In this document: positions 1,773 to 7,160 of the stretch, one piece after another
Layout of the letters: each line of letters begins with the position of its first letter
How positions within the stretch are numbered: position 1 is the first letter of the stretch
DNA from: a virus
Lineage: Duplodnaviria > Heunggongvirae > Uroviricota > Caudoviricetes
Length of the DNA stretch: 7,160 bases
IMG/VR virus record: IMGVR_UViG_2706794676_000001
Reading direction: 5' to 3' (one strand)
Position numbers and translations under genes: made by a program
Notes under the pieces: model-generated
What the model saw: only the letters and a program-made list of their open reading frames with translations
Database searches by the model: none
Told to the model about the DNA's origin: nothing

Positions 1773-2555
1773 TTATGCTGCCCTTTTCATTGCGAATGGA
1801 ACGCGAACAAACACGATCTCTTTATAGCAGCGGCAGTTTGGCAGCTCGCCCGCGTGGCCGGTCATGCCGTCCAAAGTTGGAGGTGAATCCCAGCGGACGA
1901 ATTTACCTTTCATGTGATCGTGGGAATCTCGGACATCGCCATCATCGGCTGTACGCCAAATATAACCATCCGAGCCAATAGCTATCGCTCGGGCCATATC
2001 CAGCGCGCCCGTTGCTCTTCCCAGTTCCGTTCGGGCAATCAGATCGGCCCTAGACTTAGCAACATCGCCGGTAGATGCAATCTCTTTAGCAAACTGCTCC
2101 GCCCGACCACCGGTGACAACAGCCTCTATCGCTTTGTTCTGGATGTCGTACACCCTGTCTGCGGCCTCGAGAGGCAGAGATTTGATGTACTTGACCTGTT
2201 CGGCGATGATGGATTGCATCACCTGGCCCACAGGAGCGCTTTCCACAAGATTGCGGAGCTCGCGACTGATGTTCTTGCTGTGTTGCCGCCAAACTTTCTC
2301 GTTCTGCCGGGTTAGGTCCGCAGTAAAGTTTTCCGCGACCTTTGTCGCCCAGGGGGTGATGATTTCACTGTAACGCTCCAGCGCCGCAATAATTTCCGTG
2401 ATACTGTCATTTGAACCATCGTAGCGACCATTTACGATGTCTCCGACCGCCCTCGCTATCCTGCGTAGGCTGGTTCGATACCGGATTTCCGCCTGACGGC
2501 TCCTGCGGTTCGTCATCAGGTTCGCCGATGCCGGGCGGCGCTTCATCTTCGGCAT
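1773..2555 (-). CDS. Phage head morphogenesis protein, Mu F / SPP1 gp7 family (260 aa)
   Basis: Intact ORF with ATG at 2555-2553 preceded by GAGGA 8 nt upstream, and TAA at 1775-1773. The C-terminal half carries the family's hallmark residues (ARTELGRA, W-x-TADDGDVRDSHD, LDG, then PNCRCY). Position directly after the portal gene is canonical for this family. Confidence 0.85.
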   Translation of the reverse strand: MPKMKRRPASANLMTNRRSRQAEIRYRTSLRRIARAVGDIVNGRYDGSNDSITEIIAALERYSEIITPWATKVAENFTADLTRQNEKVWRQHSKNISRELRNLVESAPVGQVMQSIIAEQVKYIKSLPLEAADRVYDIQNKAIEAVVTGGRAEQFAKEIASTGDVAKSRADLIARTELGRATGALDMARAIAIGSDGYIWRTADDGDVRDSHDHMKGKFVRWDSPPTLDGMTGHAGELPNCRCYKEIVFVRVPFAMKRAA

Positions 2556-3489
2556 TCTCGATGTCCTCGTCGGTAATGGATGCCCCGATGCCGGTTACGT
2601 CAGAATTTTCTCGCAAATCAGTCATAGCGGCTTTCAGTGTCATCAGACCATCACCCAGCGCCGTACTGATTGCGTTGGTGGTGTTTAACGCCACCGTTGA
2701 GCGATCGACATCAGACATTTGCCAGAGCGGGTTAAACTCAAACGTGAAATCGTCCGGCAGCGGCTTGCCAAGTTCCGAACGATGCATGATGTCCAGTATC
2801 CGCCGCACCGGAAGACGTAAACGCCTCTCCTGCAACGAACTGATGCGATCGTAATAGTTGGCAAGGTCTGCATCACCGGTAGAAAATCCTTTCGGGGACT
2901 GTCCGAACAACCGCACCAGTGGGATACCAACAGCGCCACTAATCTGTTCTACAAACTGCGAAAGGATGTCATCCAGACCACTGAAGCTGTACTGATGGGT
3001 TTCAAACTTATCCCGCGAGTCCATGAGCGTCATGCCTTCATTACTCTGGAACTGTCGAATCAGGTCGATATTCTTCAGCAACGCTTCATACGCAGGACCA
3101 CCAAGTGCGATAAGCTCGCGTAGCTTCTCCACGCTGTAGGTACGCAAATGCGCCTTGTAGACCAGCTGCGCCGCGCCGACAGTAGCGCTGTCGAACGCGG
3201 TAAGACGATCCCAGATACGCTCTACAACCGACATTCCCCATTCGTTCTCGGTCATCTTCTGCTGAAATGGCAACGTGACGCCATCAAAGCGAATCAGGCG
3301 ACTGTGATGAATGCGCCAGGCAGGAATTCCCGTTGCTGTGGTCACCACATCGTAAAACTCAGGTTTACCCAGGTCCGGCCCCATATCTTTAATGCGGCGG
3401 GTCAGTGCCGGGTCGACCATCCAGCGGTCGAGCGGGAGAATCCCCTTAAACTTGCCCTTACCGATGGTTTCGGGTCGCAGCGGGGTCAT
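2407..3489 (-). CDS. Portal protein, largest uninterrupted segment (360 codons) of the portal reading frame
   Basis: ORF with ATG at 3489-3487 preceded by GAGGGG about 9 nt upstream, and TGA at 2409-2407. Acidic C-terminal tail and position between large terminase and Mu F-like gene fit a portal. This start is in frame with an upstream ATG at 3873; see the pseudogene feature covering 2407-3873. Confidence 0.7.
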   Translation of the reverse strand: MTPLRPETIGKGKFKGILPLDRWMVDPALTRRIKDMGPDLGKPEFYDVVTTATGIPAWRIHHSRLIRFDGVTLPFQQKMTENEWGMSVVERIWDRLTAFDSATVGAAQLVYKAHLRTYSVEKLRELIALGGPAYEALLKNIDLIRQFQSNEGMTLMDSRDKFETHQYSFSGLDDILSQFVEQISGAVGIPLVRLFGQSPKGFSTGDADLANYYDRISSLQERRLRLPVRRILDIMHRSELGKPLPDDFTFEFNPLWQMSDVDRSTVALNTTNAISTALGDGLMTLKAAMTDLRENSDVTGIGASITDEDIENAEDEAPPGIGEPDDEPQEPSGGNPVSNQPTQDSEGGRRHRKWSLRWFK

Positions 3490-3873
3490 TGGTGCCTACC
3501 CCTCAATCATGATGAAACCCACCGCGCCGCCGTAGAGGCGCGACCATTTCAGCACGTCATTCAGCGCATCCCAGATTTGCAACTCATCCAGTTGTGATTC
3601 GAGAATGCCACGATCTTTTGCATCAATTTCCGAAGTGATGCGAATGCCTTTGCGGGTCATATCATCCGGGATAGCATCGACTGCTTCGCCGATGATCTAG
3701 GATGAACGATAGGACCATTCCACCAGCATGCGGTTACGACTGGTGAAATTAGCCCGGTAGGTGGATGCTGAGTGCTGGTTAGGTGTCTGCATCCCTACGC
3801 GGGCAATAAAATTCTCATAACCATCAGCTGTGGCCTGCACAGTTCGCCGCAGGGCTTGTTTGTTTCGTGCCAT
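2407..3873 (-). pseudogene. Full-length portal gene frame (about 488 codons) interrupted by two in-frame amber (TAG) codons; either a nonsense-disrupted portal or one needing amber suppression
   Basis: Read directly from the sequence. ATG at 3873-3871 overlaps the large terminase TGA stop (ATGA coupling) and has GGGGAGA about 8 nt upstream. The frame then reads 58 codons (MARNKQALRRTVQATADGYENFIARVGMQTPNQHSASTYRANFTSRNRMLVEWSYRSS), TAG at 3699-3697, 66 codons (IIGEAVDAIPDDMTRKGIRITSEIDAKDRGILESQLDELQIWDALNDVLKWSRLYGGAVGFIMIEG), TAG at 3498-3496, Ala-Pro, then the ATG of the 360-codon ORF. 3873 and 3489 are exactly 384 nt (128 codons) apart. The total length matches typical portal proteins. 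Confidence 0.55.
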
Positions 3874-5303
3874 CAGGCCTGTCTCCCCAGCTGTTCCCAG
3901 ATATCCAGCGATGTATCGATTGGCGCGAAGGCCATAATGAATGCATCAGCAACGTTTGGTGACGGTATCTCGCGTTTTGCGAGGTCTTTTTTACTTTCGA
4001 CCATCACACGTCCGTTACGGTCGAAATCACGATGAGGTGTTGTCAGTTCCAGTTTCAGCTTTTCAAGCAACGGACAACGAGAATCTATGCTGATCAGCTC
4101 ATCCACAGGATACTGTTCTCCGTTGTTAATGGCGTTAAACGTATTTCTGAAACGGTCAGCCACCAGCCACCATGCCTGAGCCTTAAGATTTGCGAAAAAG
4201 TCTTTGTTGGGGATGCCGTTGTACTCGTCATCTGGCTCATGCACACCAGCACCGGCGTTAAACCTCTGGTAATTCACACGTCGCGCGTATGCGTTCTCGC
4301 TCTTCCGGTCAGCGTTAATTTCAGAGAATTTAGCACCGGCAGACGCACCAACACCGATAGAGTCGTAAACAATATCTGCTTCACGCTCCAGCGCCGCCTG
4401 ATAAGTACGCTGGCAGCTCTTCAGTAATTCATCTTCTTTGGCCTTCCATTCGTCGGCCCAGAAAACAACGGATCCGTGACGGTAAACGTTAGCGCACTTA
4501 TCTGTACCACTGTCAGCCACGTCAAAGCCAATACGCTTTCTTCCACTGGGTTCGAAATTTAACGTTTTGTGCGCATCCACTGCGGCTTCTATCCAAGACA
4601 GTTTGATGATTGCCGCATCATCATCAGACTCCGGAACGCCCTCATACACATGTTTAAAACCATCCGGATCACGGCGTCGCGCCGCGTCGATAACCTTAAG
4701 CATGGTGTCAGACAGAAACGGATTTTCGTCATAGTTAATTTTGCGGATGAGAGTGCCTTCGGGCGGATCAACAACGAAGTTGCGCCAGACGAAATCAGTA
4801 ACAAGTCCGGGGTTGAATATGAACCAGCATTCCGAACCCTCTTTACGGATCGTTGGCTCCAGAATTTTCCACTGGTATTCCGTCAGTGCGTGGGCTTCTT
4901 CCAGCCACAACACATCGATCCCCTCCAGTGACTTAATTTCTTCGATGTTGCGCCATAATCCATAAAAAACAAATTCCGAGCCAGTAACCCGGTTAATGAT
5001 TTTGTTGTTCAGAATACGGAAACGGTGCCGCAGACCAAACCTGTCTATCTGAATTTTGAGCAGGGTATACACCGACTCTTCGATTTTATTCTGGATCTGA
5101 CGGGCACAACAAAAACGCAGGGTGTATTTATTCGACAGAAATATGGCAATGCCAGCGGCATCCCATGATTTTGACGATGACCGACCACCATAAAGCACTT
5201 TGTTACGTGCCCGCATAGTCCAGAAACTACGTAAAGCCGGATTCAGCGTCGGTTTGGATGTCAGAGTAGAAGTCATTGAGGTCACGCTCTCCATTGCCAT
5301 CAT
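3873..5303 (-). CDS. terL: Terminase large subunit (PBSX/Terminase_6-like ATPase-nuclease)
   Basis: Long intact ORF ending at TGA 3875-3873. Contains the N-terminal LNPALRSFW motif followed by a Walker A / P-loop (VLYGGRSSSKSW), a Walker B-like hydrophobic stretch ending in acidic residues (IDVLWLEEAH), and a C-terminal nuclease-like region. The longest ORF begins at 5384 with a non-ATG start; ATG codons at 5303, 5300, 5294 and 5276 are more likely starts (AGGT lies 4-5 nt before 5303). Exact start is uncertain, and any of them overlaps the small terminase 3' end. Confidence 0.9.
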   Translation of the reverse strand: MMAMESVTSMTSTLTSKPTLNPALRSFWTMRARNKVLYGGRSSSKSWDAAGIAIFLSNKYTLRFCCARQIQNKIEESVYTLLKIQIDRFGLRHRFRILNNKIINRVTGSEFVFYGLWRNIEEIKSLEGIDVLWLEEAHALTEYQWKILEPTIRKEGSECWFIFNPGLVTDFVWRNFVVDPPEGTLIRKINYDENPFLSDTMLKVIDAARRRDPDGFKHVYEGVPESDDDAAIIKLSWIEAAVDAHKTLNFEPSGRKRIGFDVADSGTDKCANVYRHGSVVFWADEWKAKEDELLKSCQRTYQAALEREADIVYDSIGVGASAGAKFSEINADRKSENAYARRVNYQRFNAGAGVHEPDDEYNGIPNKDFFANLKAQAWWLVADRFRNTFNAINNGEQYPVDELISIDSRCPLLEKLKLELTTPHRDFDRNGRVMVESKKDLAKREIPSPNVADAFIMAFAPIDTSLDIWEQLGRQA

Positions 5304-5991
5304 CAATACCTGCATCACGGCGAAGACGATCAGCCTCCAGAGACACCTTATCAGTGGCGGCCTTGCGGTAGGCTGTATCAGCAAATATTTTTCCTACCGT
5401 CGCAAGCGTGCCAACGATGGACTCAATACGAACTGTATTGCGCATCATTGCTTTCTCGGCGGCGCTGATATTTTCAATCAGCATCTTCCTTTCCTGGTCC
5501 CCATTAGCATCTTCCAGCGACACCAACCACCGACCAATATTCTCTGCAGCGACAAGGTTGTTAGCACGAAGGCGAAATAATTCGTCCTCGAGCGTCAACG
5601 CTTTAGCGTCCTCTATCACCTCATCTTTGAGCAGAAGGCGACGGGCATAACCACCGTGTTTTAATGCCTGCTGGTTACCGGGTTGGAATGGGTTAGTCGG
5701 GGGATCGGTACGCATTCCGCGTATCGGTTTCGTATCCGGTGTAGATTCTGTTTTTAGTTGCGTACTTTTTTGTGTAAGGCCAGTAATGGCAGGCTTTCTG
5801 CTGGTACGCACTTTCCTTTTTTGCGTACCATTTTTGCAAACCTGCGTACCGCCACTGCGTGCCCAACCAAGCTTTTTGGCCCTCTTCCTGATAGCCCCTT
5901 CTGTAACGCCGTATTTCTCGCCTATATCACGGAGGCTAAGGACTCCGGCCCGGTATGCCGATTCGATGGCCTCCCAGTCCGGTTTTGCCAT
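5227..5991 (-). CDS. terS: Terminase small subunit (254 aa) with N-terminal helix-turn-helix DNA-binding domain
   Basis: Intact ORF with ATG at 5991-5989 preceded by AGGAAG 7 nt upstream, and TAG at 5229-5227. N-terminus (SLRDIGEKYGVTEGAIRKRAKKLGW) is a classic HTH as in small terminases, followed by a basic linker and a conserved PGNQQALKHGGYAR motif. Lies immediately upstream of, and overlapping, the large terminase. Confidence 0.8.
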   Translation of the reverse strand: MAKPDWEAIESAYRAGVLSLRDIGEKYGVTEGAIRKRAKKLGWARSGGTQVCKNGTQKRKVRTSRKPAITGLTQKSTQLKTESTPDTKPIRGMRTDPPTNPFQPGNQQALKHGGYARRLLLKDEVIEDAKALTLEDELFRLRANNLVAAENIGRWLVSLEDANGDQERKMLIENISAAEKAMMRNTVRIESIVGTLATVGKIFADTAYRKAATDKVSLEADRLRRDAGIDDGNGERDLNDFYSDIQTDAESGFT

Positions 5992-6075
5992 GATTATGCT
6001 TCCTGTGATTTACTGTTATCGCTGCCTGTCACAATAGGTTGCTTTAATTCTTCCTCATCACTCACTCCTGCGACG

Positions 6076-6101
6076 CTCCGTGGCAGGGCCCCCCACAGGA
6101 G
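6076..6101. repeat. GC-rich imperfect inverted repeat (8-bp stem with one bulge, 9-nt loop containing GGGCCC) in the intergenic region upstream of terS
   Basis: CTCCGTGG (6076-6083) pairs with CCACAGGAG (6093-6101) around the loop CAGGGCCCC. No U-run follows on either strand, so it is not a canonical intrinsic terminator. Lies between the moron and the terS ribosome-binding site. Confidence 0.3.
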
Positions 6102-6188
6102 TACCTTGTAAATGTAAGGTGTTTAAGCCTAAATTAAGTCGTATCACGGTTAAATAGCAAAGAAAAATTCACAGAAGGAAAGACATTG

Positions 6189-6698
6189 ATGGAGTGGATA
6201 AATGCTTTGATGAACTATTTTGTACTTCATCCATATCGCCTATGGGGGCTTCTTTTTATAATAGCGTTCACAAAATCCACTTTACTCATTTCGGCGATAT
6301 TGCCACCAGCATCAATTATGATGGCCACTGTAATTACAGTCAGCAAGACGACTCTTTCACCATGGGAAGCTGGAATCACGGTCATGAGTGGCGCATGGTG
6401 CGGTACTATCGTTAATTACCATCTTGGTATAATAATTGGGCATATCCCTCAACTTGCATGTATAATATCAAGCCGTTCCAATACAATAGAACGGGTTCGC
6501 CTTCAGTTGCAAAATAACTCTGTGTCAATACTTTTCACTTCGCGCTTTATCGCCGTGCTGCGTTATATTGCTCCTTTGGTGGCAGGAATGTTGCAACTTC
6601 ATCCAGTGAAAGTGTATACAGTGAGTCTGATTTCAGCTGCTAGCTGGTCAGCACTTTATGTTGGTAGTTTTAGCTTCGTGTTGCCTTTTTTTAGCTAA
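6189..6698 (+). CDS. Small polytopic inner-membrane protein (about 169 aa, four predicted TM helices), resembling DedA/YqaA-type (SNARE-associated / VTT-domain) proteins; prophage moron
   Basis: ORF on the strand opposite all phage genes. ATG at 6189 is preceded by AAGGA 9 nt upstream; the track's 6186 start is a TTG one codon earlier. Stop is TAA at 6696-6698. Markedly AT-rich (a sampled 60-nt stretch is about 37% GC against about 60% in the flanking structural genes). Four hydrophobic segments with Gly-rich motifs (SGAWCGTIVNYHLGIIIG, RYIAPLVAG) recall YqaA/DedA proteins; this is recollection, not a search result. Confidence 0.65.
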   Translation: MEWINALMNYFVLHPYRLWGLLFIIAFTKSTLLISAILPPASIMMATVITVSKTTLSPWEAGITVMSGAWCGTIVNYHLGIIIGHIPQLACIISSRSNTIERVRLQLQNNSVSILFTSRFIAVLRYIAPLVAGMLQLHPVKVYTVSLISAASWSALYVGSFSFVLPFFS

Positions 6699-6786
6699 AC
6701 TGCCCATAAAAAGCTCTTGCGAATCCAGCTTCCCCCATTCCTCTGACAACAGAATCTGATTTGAAGGATAATGAGTAAAATTACCG

Positions 6787-7160
6787 CTACCCCCCAAGGC
6801 ATTGGATCCTGATGTACTCCTGAAGCATTCTCAATGCTGTCTGGTCGCTGATGATTCCGTCCCGGATACCGAGAACGTTTCGTCCAGCAACTGGAGAGAG
6901 TTCGACGGTGGCATCATTGCCCATGCCGGAGGCGCTGGAGGTTTCGGCTGAGGATGGCACAGGGCATTTTCCTTTGACGAGCACCCGACCACCATTATCA
7001 AGCTTGCGCCGAAGAGCATCATTTTCAGCTTTCGCATCAGCTAACTCCTTCGTGTATTTAGCATCGAGTGCATCAGCATCACGCTGGCGCTGCTGCATGT
7101 CAGTAATGGTTGCGTTCGCCAGCTTCAGTTCTCTTGCGTTTTTGTCGCGCTGCTCTTTGT
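6787..7160 (-). CDS. Rz: Rz-type i-spanin (inner-membrane spanin), 5'-partial; N-terminus lies beyond the window end
   Basis: Translation reads ...[51 protein letters not shown]..., a close match to my recollection of phage lambda Rz. The frame is open to the window edge at 7160. Stop is TAG at 6789-6787. Confidence 0.85.
6831..7037 (-). CDS. Rz1: Rz1-type o-spanin (outer-membrane lipoprotein spanin), nested in the +1 frame inside Rz
   Basis: 68-aa ORF with ATG at 7037-7035 preceded by a strong AAGGAG 7 nt upstream, and TGA at 6833-6831. Signal peptide with lipobox (LIMVVGC) followed by a proline-rich stretch ([11 protein letters not shown]), as in lambda Rz1. Fully embedded within Rz. Confidence 0.85.

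Follow-up and report, generated by a model that had tools for sequence, protein, structure and literature searches.

A minimal DedA-family membrane protein gene in the bor-equivalent slot of a decaying Shigella prophage

The window analysed here is the whole of a 7,160-nucleotide stretch of caudovirus DNA (IMG/VR record IMGVR_UViG_2706794676_000001), and our subject is one small gene in it, encoding short DedA, that lies between the lysis and packaging genes of a prophage carried by Shigella. DedA proteins are recognised as undecaprenyl-phosphate (UndP) and phospholipid flippases that underpin resistance to polymyxin and colistin. Two points are secure: short DedA is a DedA-family membrane protein, and its gene is a genuine moron in the slot equivalent to that of bor in phage lambda. 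The reading that we favour beyond these, with a probability of about 0.6, is that the gene is a moron cassette of host origin, that its product is a minimal DedA protein handling lipid phosphates, and that it serves as an envelope fitness factor of the lysogen rather than in a phage function. Support for each of the four other explanations weighed below is weaker. The gene had been picked out in an original prediction made from the sequence of the window; the observation was real and its interpretation is supported, with corrections given where they arise.

Short DedA is encoded on the plus strand, either at 6189-6698 with an ATG start (169 amino acids) or at 6186-6698 with the TTG start chosen by PGAP (170 amino acids); the call rests on the open reading frame (ORF) and on its match to Pfam PF09335. 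Since homologues start with MEW, the ATG at 6189 is the better start call, but residue numbers throughout refer to the 170-residue TTG form. A ribosome-binding site had been predicted for the 169-residue protein, and a Shine-Dalgarno sequence, AGAAGGA (6174-6180, plus strand, read from the sequence), does stand 8 nt ahead of the ATG; this purine-rich block is kept in homologues. The remainder of the window is a minus-strand late operon consisting of cement protein, DUF2213, Mu-F head-morphogenesis, DUF1073-type portal, terL and terS genes, a gap and Rz/Rz1. The ORF occupies the terS-Rz gap, convergent with Rz and divergent from terS (both on the minus strand), the arrangement of bor in lambda.

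The gene is also foreign in composition. GC (guanine plus cytosine) content is 40.6% in the feature and 41.7% in the ORF (38.6% at third codon positions), as against 51.2% in terS, 54.2% in Rz and 52.3% in the remaining window, so that the ORF shows the contrast with neighbouring phage genes (41.7% versus 51-54%) by which a moron is recognised. The lowest-GC 513-bp interval of the whole sequence begins at 6106 and lies about 4.7 standard deviations under the mean of the other intervals. The gene had been described as AT-rich, with 37% GC against 55-60% in its flanks. It does have the lowest GC in the window, but the figures are 40.6% against 51-54%, and the contrast had been overstated by nearly a factor of two.

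The family assignment comes from a match to Pfam PF09335 (VTT_dom) of 52.4 bits, against a gathering score of 33.9, in which residues 42-162 cover model positions 3-121 of 123. All homologues carry this domain. The protein is 100% identical to the Shigella/E. coli protein WP_011069285.1, labelled 'DedA family protein' by RefSeq/PGAP. A Pfam search had been proposed at the outset, with lack of DedA similarity named as the outcome that would count against the assignment; what it returned is the above-threshold VTT_dom match. Of the predicted 'DedA/YqaA-type' character the DedA part stands on this match and on the PGAP name, and the YqaA part does not, the residue pattern being the opposite one (see below).

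An AlphaFold2 (AF2) model built from 69 homologues reached a predicted local distance difference test score (pLDDT) of 79.8 and a predicted template-modelling score of 0.74; an earlier model from 16 sequences was too poor (pLDDT 55.9). The model predicts a helix at residues 2-14, a hairpin (16-31/43-54), a transmembrane (TM) helix (59-85) and a further helix (88-110), and in the second half a hairpin (112-119/123-135) followed by a TM helix (140-169). Amphipathic surface helices are predicted beside the hairpins 16-54 and 112-135 and the TM helices 59-85 and 140-169. In the published DedA core an amphipathic helix, a re-entrant hairpin and a TM helix are repeated in pseudo-inverted fashion (PMC7818093), and the predicted topology fits this core with nothing added. 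YqjA, DedA, YabI and YohD extend 40-90 residues further, and the first three have additional helices at both the N- and the C-terminus that short DedA lacks. The ORF product would thus be a minimal DedA/VTT inner-membrane protein of two re-entrant hairpins and two TM helices. A four-helix protein had been predicted, and there are indeed four hydrophobic stretches, but in the model these form a pair of helix-loop-helix hairpins and two long TM helices. Foldseek with the AF2 model gave no PDB match at E≤0.001, a sequence search of PDB gave only a chance match (E 0.17), and among viral structures in BFVD there were only non-significant matches to giant-virus 'SNARE-associated' proteins (E 0.7-2.8).

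The likeness to lambda bor is one of position: the same slot after Rz/Rz1 and before the packaging genes, the same inverted orientation, accessory status and foreign composition. The products differ, short DedA being a polytopic inner-membrane protein with no relation in sequence or fold to the outer-membrane lipoprotein Bor. Pfam gave VTT_dom as the only match, neither a Bor domain nor a lipoprotein signal was found, and the N-terminus, where an amphipathic helix leads into a hairpin, contains no lipobox; the view that this is not a Bor lipoprotein is borne out. Genes antisense to the late operon are typical accessory loci, and bor is expressed in lambda lysogens (PMC7067206). Short DedA would be read from a promoter of its own, counter to the silenced late operon, and may act as a lysogenic-conversion or fitness factor under envelope stress such as that from cationic peptides or low Mg2+.

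Membrane-protein morons transcribed against the late operon include many genes of the superinfection-exclusion type, and exclusion had been among the roles originally suggested. That short DedA is an exclusion or anti-phage protein blocking the entry of incoming phage DNA is nevertheless highly improbable, and the suggestion gained no support. None of the 5,027 PADLOC models identified a defence family at E <= 0.01, BFVD holds no phage protein with the same fold, and in about 60 species the orthologues are chromosomal genes in syntenic positions, also in Arsenophonus endosymbionts with genomes of 0.85-0.94 Mb.

Comparison of the Rz-terS junction across related prophages, also proposed originally, revealed that the slot is a variable cargo space. 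In about 120 E. coli prophages whose terS is 95-99% identical, similarity breaks off 2 nt upstream of the start of that gene, and prophages with 98.8% identical terS are without short DedA. The slot holds only a 61-residue same-strand ORF in avian pathogenic E. coli (APEC) E19057 and a run of small same-strand ORFs in another prophage. Universal conservation with uniform GC in related phages, which had been named as evidence to the contrary, does not apply, as the 98.8% identical relatives lack the gene and its GC content differs from that of its flanks. An unrelated lambda-type prophage of Citrobacter youngae carries a 78% identical gene, likewise inverted, between GH19 endolysin/holin genes and a Nu1-like terS/GpA terminase. 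In BLASTN comparisons window 6114-6708 was 82% identical to this copy and 6119-6709 was 77% identical to a chromosomal copy in C. meridianamericanus, with no similarity to either past these limits. These comparisons define a mobile cassette of 595 bp (6114-6708, plus strand) made up of about 75 bp of upstream sequence, the ORF and about 10 bp downstream. Homology to the prophages sharing the same terS ends at 5993-5998, the cassette begins at 6114, and from 6743/6758 onward the window matches the Rz side of thousands of E. coli prophages. With ratios of nonsynonymous to synonymous substitution (dN/dS) of 0.15-0.24 between the window ORF and the Citrobacter copies, short DedA is under purifying selection. 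We picture a host-derived cassette of proximal promoter, ribosome-binding site and ORF that would have entered a lambdoid prophage with a PBSX-type terminase between its lysis and terminase genes, pointing the opposite way.

The location beside Rz/Rz1 is all that speaks for another function, that of a lysis-timing accessory modulating holin or spanin, which we consider scarcely credible: sister prophages lyse without the gene, and the chromosomal orthologues have no lysis genes nearby. Its strand, opposite to that of S-R-Rz, and its separate upstream module mean that the gene is not co-transcribed with them.

The C. youngae slot (locus L007, 6311-7776) also contains a gene for 161-175 amino acids, an opposite-strand gene for 119 amino acids and a DUF6694 gene, with no PADLOC match, and appears to be a multi-gene cargo region. 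The copies in C. meridianamericanus and in the IMG/VR contig L049 were rejected as phage cargo. In the former (L011, 7584-8510) the gene follows dinI in a small islet; in the latter (2182-6513) a Mu-like prophage (transposase A, repressor) abuts the dinI-DedA islet, with SRAP, SMEK and Macro-domain genes on the other side. Short DedA had no record among 50,697 phage genomes, and the 16 IMG/VR contigs with the gene all come from this clade.

Short DedA belongs to a sharply bounded subfamily. In two database searches its members scored 126-283 bits and measured 165-180 amino acids, the next matches reaching at most 85 bits; among 1.84 billion proteins there were 12 representatives at E<1e-30 and then the same gap to ≤85 bits. 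The genera concerned are Citrobacter, Kosakonia, Enterobacter, Lelliottia, Huaxiibacter, Hafnia, Morganella, Proteus (P. myxofaciens) and Arsenophonus, and the 70 subfamily loci found in 185,579 species genomes are all from Enterobacterales. The K-12 paralogues YabI, DedA and YqjA are equidistant from short DedA (58-60 bits, 23-25% identity). The nearest outgroup consists mostly of proteins of 430-740 amino acids in which an N-terminal VTT domain is fused to a PAP2 lipid-phosphate phosphatase, with or without LssY_C.

The subfamily is set apart by its charged residues. Position 30, equivalent to E39 of YqjA and E32 of UptA, is Lys in 57 of 60 members and Glu or Asp in 164 of 168 other DedA proteins; Glu is kept at this position in 89/89 VTT-PAP2 fusions. 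The Asp of the GDxxxYxxGR motif is replaced by Thr or Ser, the subfamily alignment contains no invariant acidic residue, and the Shigella protein has no Asp and three Glu in all. R120 and R126 (R130 and R136 in YqjA, R112 and R118 in UptA) do not vary in the subfamily alignment and are kept by 58/60 members. The basic residues that characterise the COG0586 branch are therefore there (R120/R126), and the acidic one of re-entrant helix 1 (RH1), to which the literature ties proton coupling and UndP flipping driven by the proton-motive force, is not, K30 standing at the E39 position. In YqjA/YghB, E39, D51, R130 and R136 are essential (PMC10846249; PMC7818093), and YqjA D51A and R136A do not complement at pH 8.5 (bioRxiv 10.64898/2026.09.20.752871). 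In UptA, E32 bonds R118, and E32A, R112A and R118A reduce binding of undecaprenyl phosphate, C55-P (PMC11474028). Todor et al. distinguished proteins with acid and basic residues (COG0586, UndP flippases), with neither (COG0398) and with the acid only (COG1238/YqaA) (PMC10127716); the short DedA subfamily adds a fourth combination, 'basic only', with an origin inside COG0586. A42, at the position of YqjA D51, was considered as a lesion and dropped, because position 42 varies across the DedA family and is not diagnostic.

Among known systems, the COG0586 branch (YqjA, YghB, DedA, YabI and YohD, B. subtilis UptA and P. aeruginosa PA4029) contains the nearest relatives by profile, sharing the VTT domain, the predicted hairpin and TM core, and the Arg pair and motif of the second hairpin (SRFIAVLRYIAPLVAG in short DedA, GRFIAFVRTLLPTIAG in YqjA). 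Short DedA departs from it in Lys for Glu, in Thr/Ser for the Asp of GDxxxYxxGR and in a C-terminus 40-90 residues shorter. The closest VTT domains outside the subfamily are those of the VTT-PAP2(-LssY_C) fusions ('bifunctional DedA/PAP2 phosphatase', P. aeruginosa PA4011 type), which score 70-85 bits over positions 1-160 and of which about 29% likewise have Ala at the YqjA-D51 position. These proteins differ in their length (430-700 amino acids), their lipid-phosphate phosphatase domain and the retention of Glu in all 89 examined, and they are not phage-borne. YqaA and its COG1238 relatives resemble short DedA as short single-domain VTT proteins of about 140-170 amino acids, but they have acidic residues in RH1 and no basic ones in RH2 (PMC10127716), whereas short DedA has the reverse (K30, R120/R126).

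These comparisons suggest what the protein may do. A phosphate-headed lipid is suggested as its substrate by the Arg pair that it has kept, by its PAP2-fused relatives and by co-induction with arn (see below); UndP or a related polyprenyl-phosphate or anionic lipid is the most likely. The lipid would pass between the re-entrant hairpins, with R120 and R126 touching the phosphate. With K30 in place of the conserved Glu and no acid conserved in the subfamily, the protein would not couple transport to protons but would let the lipid equilibrate, in the manner of a scramblase; a Glu-to-Lys change without a conserved acid points to uncoupled scramblase-like transport or to altered specificity.

The chromosomal orthologues place the gene next to Mg2+ transporters. 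In about 27 of about 32 Enterobacter, Lelliottia and Huaxiibacter loci it is divergent from a gene for an MgtE-family Mg2+ transporter (PF01769 plus CBS), and in about seven Arsenophonus loci MgtE follows short DedA. In Morganella (M. morganii, L107 6001-7470, and L110) it is convergent with corA, 10 nt apart, between rarD and uvrD in a conserved recQ-rarD-...-corA-uvrD neighbourhood. We judge it very unlikely that two unrelated families of Mg2+ transporter (MgtE and CorA) adjoin one small gene family by chance. Other chromosomal copies lie in Kosakonia between genes for an elongation factor G paralogue and an L,D-transpeptidase, in C. amalonaticus, and in the dinI-DedA islet of C. meridianamericanus. 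GC content matches that of the host in Enterobacter (62%) and Arsenophonus (33%) and is lowered in the mobile clade (47%, 46.5% and 41.8%). Arsenophonus endosymbionts (L094, L108, L113-L116), with genomes of 17-25% GC, keep the gene among housekeeping genes, in the order rpoD, gene, mutS or gene, ssb, RNase II-type gene. Retention in genomes so reduced hints at an important cellular role.

The sequence recognised by PhoP, which we take from E. coli and Salmonella to be (T/G)GTTTA-N5-(T/G)GTTTA, occurs in perfect form in 22 Enterobacter species, on the gene's strand and 99-122 nt upstream of short DedA. No perfect box was found in 785 kb of flanking background DNA. The half-sites are invariant and the spacers variable, the boxes read TGTTTA-N5-(T/G)GTTTA, and they lie in the divergent MgtE/DedA intergenic region (L058-L084; for example L016 7898-7914). 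Published expression data agree with this arrangement: in a colistin-resistant, mgrB-deleted Enterobacter hormaechei, N5F16_08425 (MgtE), N5F16_08430 (DedA family, SNARE_assoc) and N5F16_08435 (short-chain dehydrogenase/reductase, SDR) were up 19.6-, 23.1- and 3.1-fold (PMC10434160 supplement, Table S1), and in a CSA-13-resistant isolate the same trio was up 7.7-, 11.9- and 2.4-fold, alongside arn (PMC10434160 supplement). The order MgtE, short DedA, SDR is identical in loci L016-L018 and in E. hormaechei L062/L072. From the induction of these genes, the synteny and the boxes we conclude that the chromosomal orthologue behaves as a PhoPQ-regulon gene. It is a candidate new member of that regulon, and the perfect boxes together with the published data (PMC10434160) predict a new PhoP-regulated MgtE/DedA pair in Enterobacter. 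The native role may accordingly be sought in the envelope-remodelling response to low Mg2+ through PhoPQ, beside MgtE and arn. The link with cationic-peptide resistance that had been suggested for the phage gene gains indirect support through the Enterobacter orthologue, co-induced with the arn operon and MgtE upon de-repression of PhoPQ.

The same data raise the alternative that short DedA is a Mg2+ or divalent-cation factor, which moves Mg2+ itself or modulates MgtE/CorA, the prophage copy helping in Mg2+-poor niches. Besides adjoining two unrelated Mg2+ transporter families in different genera and being co-induced with MgtE, it has relatives with phenotypes of this kind: Mg2+ or Ca2+ rescues those of K. 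pneumoniae yqjA/yghB mutants, and Mg2+ uptake has been linked to a DedA protein of Xanthomonas (PMC10846249). Even so we consider it unlikely. A protein that conducts cations should offer them acidic or polar ligands, whereas the subfamily has no conserved acid and adds a Lys beside two Arg, and co-regulation with Mg2+ transporters is equally expected of any member of the PhoPQ regulon.

In the window the upstream part of the cassette contains a candidate proximal promoter (6120-6155, plus strand) that consists of TGTTTA (6120-6125), 5-6 nt, AAATTA (6131-6136, a degenerate second half-site), 13 nt and TTAAAT (6150-6155), with no canonical -35. The box-like block TGTTTA-AGCCT-AAATTA is conserved with the Citrobacter copies, and the upstream block as a whole aligns with a proximal module in Enterobacter, (T/C)GTT(T/G)A-N5-xATTxA-N12-T(T/C)(A/T)AAT. 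In E. coli VL7S7 (L003 7992-8045, corresponding to about 6139-6142 of the window) a copy of the insertion sequence (IS) IS911 stands some 47-50 nt upstream of the ATG; the box-like repeat is lost, and TTAAAT, the ribosome-binding site and the ORF are kept, so that expression there may depend on an outward promoter carried by the IS.

Loss of function has to be weighed at this point. Short DedA may be a neutral hitch-hiker or degenerate DedA, a short harmless gene that persists although Glu-to-Lys has inactivated transport, or it may interfere with host DedA dimers as a dominant-negative partner. In favour of this, YqjA no longer functions when E39 or D51 is mutated (PMC10846249; bioRxiv 10.64898/2026.09.20.752871), the distal PhoP box is missing from the window copy and the carrier prophage is decaying. 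Such an explanation is nonetheless quite unlikely in view of the low dN/dS (0.15-0.24), the retention in strongly reduced endosymbiont genomes and the 23-fold induction of an orthologue. Moreover, K30 is nearly invariant across the subfamily, and is therefore a selected state and not a lesion.

The distribution of the gene bears on the fitness role that we favour. The exact protein is known from S. sonnei and S. flexneri, with a 169-residue variant in S. dysenteriae, and is listed in 5,113 collection blocks; among 5,426 complete E. coli genomes short DedA occurs in six. The window is 100% identical to three loci (L024, L029 and L030). The carrier prophage is integrated at the ybhC/pgl site and interrupted by copies of IS1, IS2, IS600, IS911, IS110 and IS66, with breakpoints that vary by lineage (left 5299, 5520, 5952, 5980, 5999 and 6139; right ~6787, 6854, 6954 and 7032 in window coordinates). 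The phage genes around it are decaying, yet no locus retrieved has a damaged ORF. In the window the portal gene (2407-3873, minus strand) has in-frame TAG codons at 3697-3699 (W59, TGG>TAG) and 3496-3498 (Q126, CAG>TAG) relative to an intact 488-residue copy in E. coli FDAARGOS_943; the same two stops are present in L024, L036 and L044. With two nonsense codons in its portal gene the prophage is therefore defective, and it would now be a remnant at the ybhC/pgl (att-lambda) site of Shigella. Three IMG/VR copies (L038, L042 and L045) have all examined head genes intact.

Several observations weigh against our interpretation. First, short DedA falls below the NCBIfam equivalog cutoffs of the UptA/E. 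coli DedA set: against NF052604, NF052605 and NF008102 it scored 19.5, 16.0 and 30.7 bits with cutoffs of 250, 300 and 236. Equivalence to E. coli DedA (30.7 versus 236) or UptA (19.5 versus 250) is thereby ruled out. Second, loss of the conserved Glu could mean another substrate or a non-transport role, and by the logic of Todor et al. (PMC10127716) the absence of RH1 acids argues against classical UndP flipping driven by the proton-motive force. Third, PhoP control may not extend to the phage-borne copy: of the two boxes the window copy lacks the perfect distal one and has kept the weak proximal box-like element, TGTTTAAGCCTAAATTA, with three mismatches. The window contains 24 matches of this quality (12.5 expected), and the element does not rise above chance. 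A PhoP box was consequently rejected for the window copy, and likewise for the Citrobacter phage copy, and was retained for the Enterobacter orthologues only. A scan for a sigma-70 consensus found none upstream of the ORF, and a terminator scan none between the convergent genes. Finally, retention in Shigella was seen mainly through look-ups that presuppose the gene, an ascertainment bias, and a few entries of short DedA are truncated ('partial'); selection for retention in Shigella is on these grounds suggested only.

A bolder proposal would unite all of these elements. In it the K-type short DedA proteins would make up a fourth functional class within the DedA superfamily, proton-uncoupled, all-basic scramblases of UndP or anionic lipids; they would form an unrecognised arm of the PhoPQ/low-Mg2+ response, captured by phages together with an activator-dependent promoter as a fitness moron and selectively retained in independent Shigella lineages during prophage decay. 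Taken as a whole we regard this proposal as rather doubtful and put it forward tentatively.

The basic annotation, 'DedA family protein', is already public. As far as the searched literature shows, the K-type subfamily, the link to Mg2+ and PhoPQ, the recurrent capture by phages into one slot and the persistence in Shigella are new. Neither the 50,697 phage genomes nor the structures in BFVD nor the literature that could be searched yielded a report of a phage-borne DedA, and literature searches combining Shigella, prophage and DedA, or using the accessions, returned nothing. The subfamily amounts to a natural experiment on the conserved Glu of DedA proteins, since all of it uses Lys instead. 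The gene is also a candidate for lysogenic conversion, rare in E. coli and near-ubiquitous in Shigella as judged from look-ups that required its presence. If it is true that the gene alters tolerance of cationic peptides or low Mg2+, it would be a mobile determinant of envelope resistance spread by prophages.

The genes flanking the cassette, all on the minus strand, were located as follows. The lysis side carries the gene for the i-spanin Rz (6787 to beyond 7160; PF03245, 78.4 bits; phrog_13, E 1e-43), which is cut by the end of the window and is 471 nt at full length in L001, with the embedded gene for the o-spanin Rz1 (6831-7037; PF06085, 75 bits) ending the lysis cassette. On the packaging side terS, the gene for the terminase small subunit and the first packaging gene, lies at 5227-5991 (phrog_370, E 7.5e-95) and terL at 3873-5384 (PF04466, 131 bits). 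Homology breaks delimit a 5′ junction segment (5992-6113) that is specific to the prophage type and includes a GC-rich inverted repeat at about 6066-6102, and a 3′ junction (6709-6786) whose last part (6743/6758-6786) is sequence found downstream of Rz in many lambdoid prophages. The 5′ junction hairpin is no more stable than shuffled sequences (z -0.65/-0.79), folds at the 3′ junction are not significant, and Rfam gave nothing credible in 5900-6900.

Some further details of the carrier prophage were observed. Positions 1-83 of the window match the end of an IS1 copy and lie beside IS1A in L001. Compared with the otherwise 100% identical L024 and L029, the window is without 60 nt between positions 259 and 260, which makes the cement protein 148 instead of 168 amino acids long. 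Outside the window, the carrier prophage has a cluster of four tRNA genes (Ile, Arg, Thr and either Gly or Val) upstream of the holin gene, together with the toxin gene hokD (L001 14547-14857; L002 10160-10466). Within it, a 14-nt inverted repeat at 6364-6377 and 6721-6734 (GGGAAGCTGGAATC and GAATCCAGCTTCCC, complementary at 13 of 14 positions) joins the coding region of short DedA to the 3′ junction; by our own estimate about 0.07 such pairs would be expected by chance in 901 nt.

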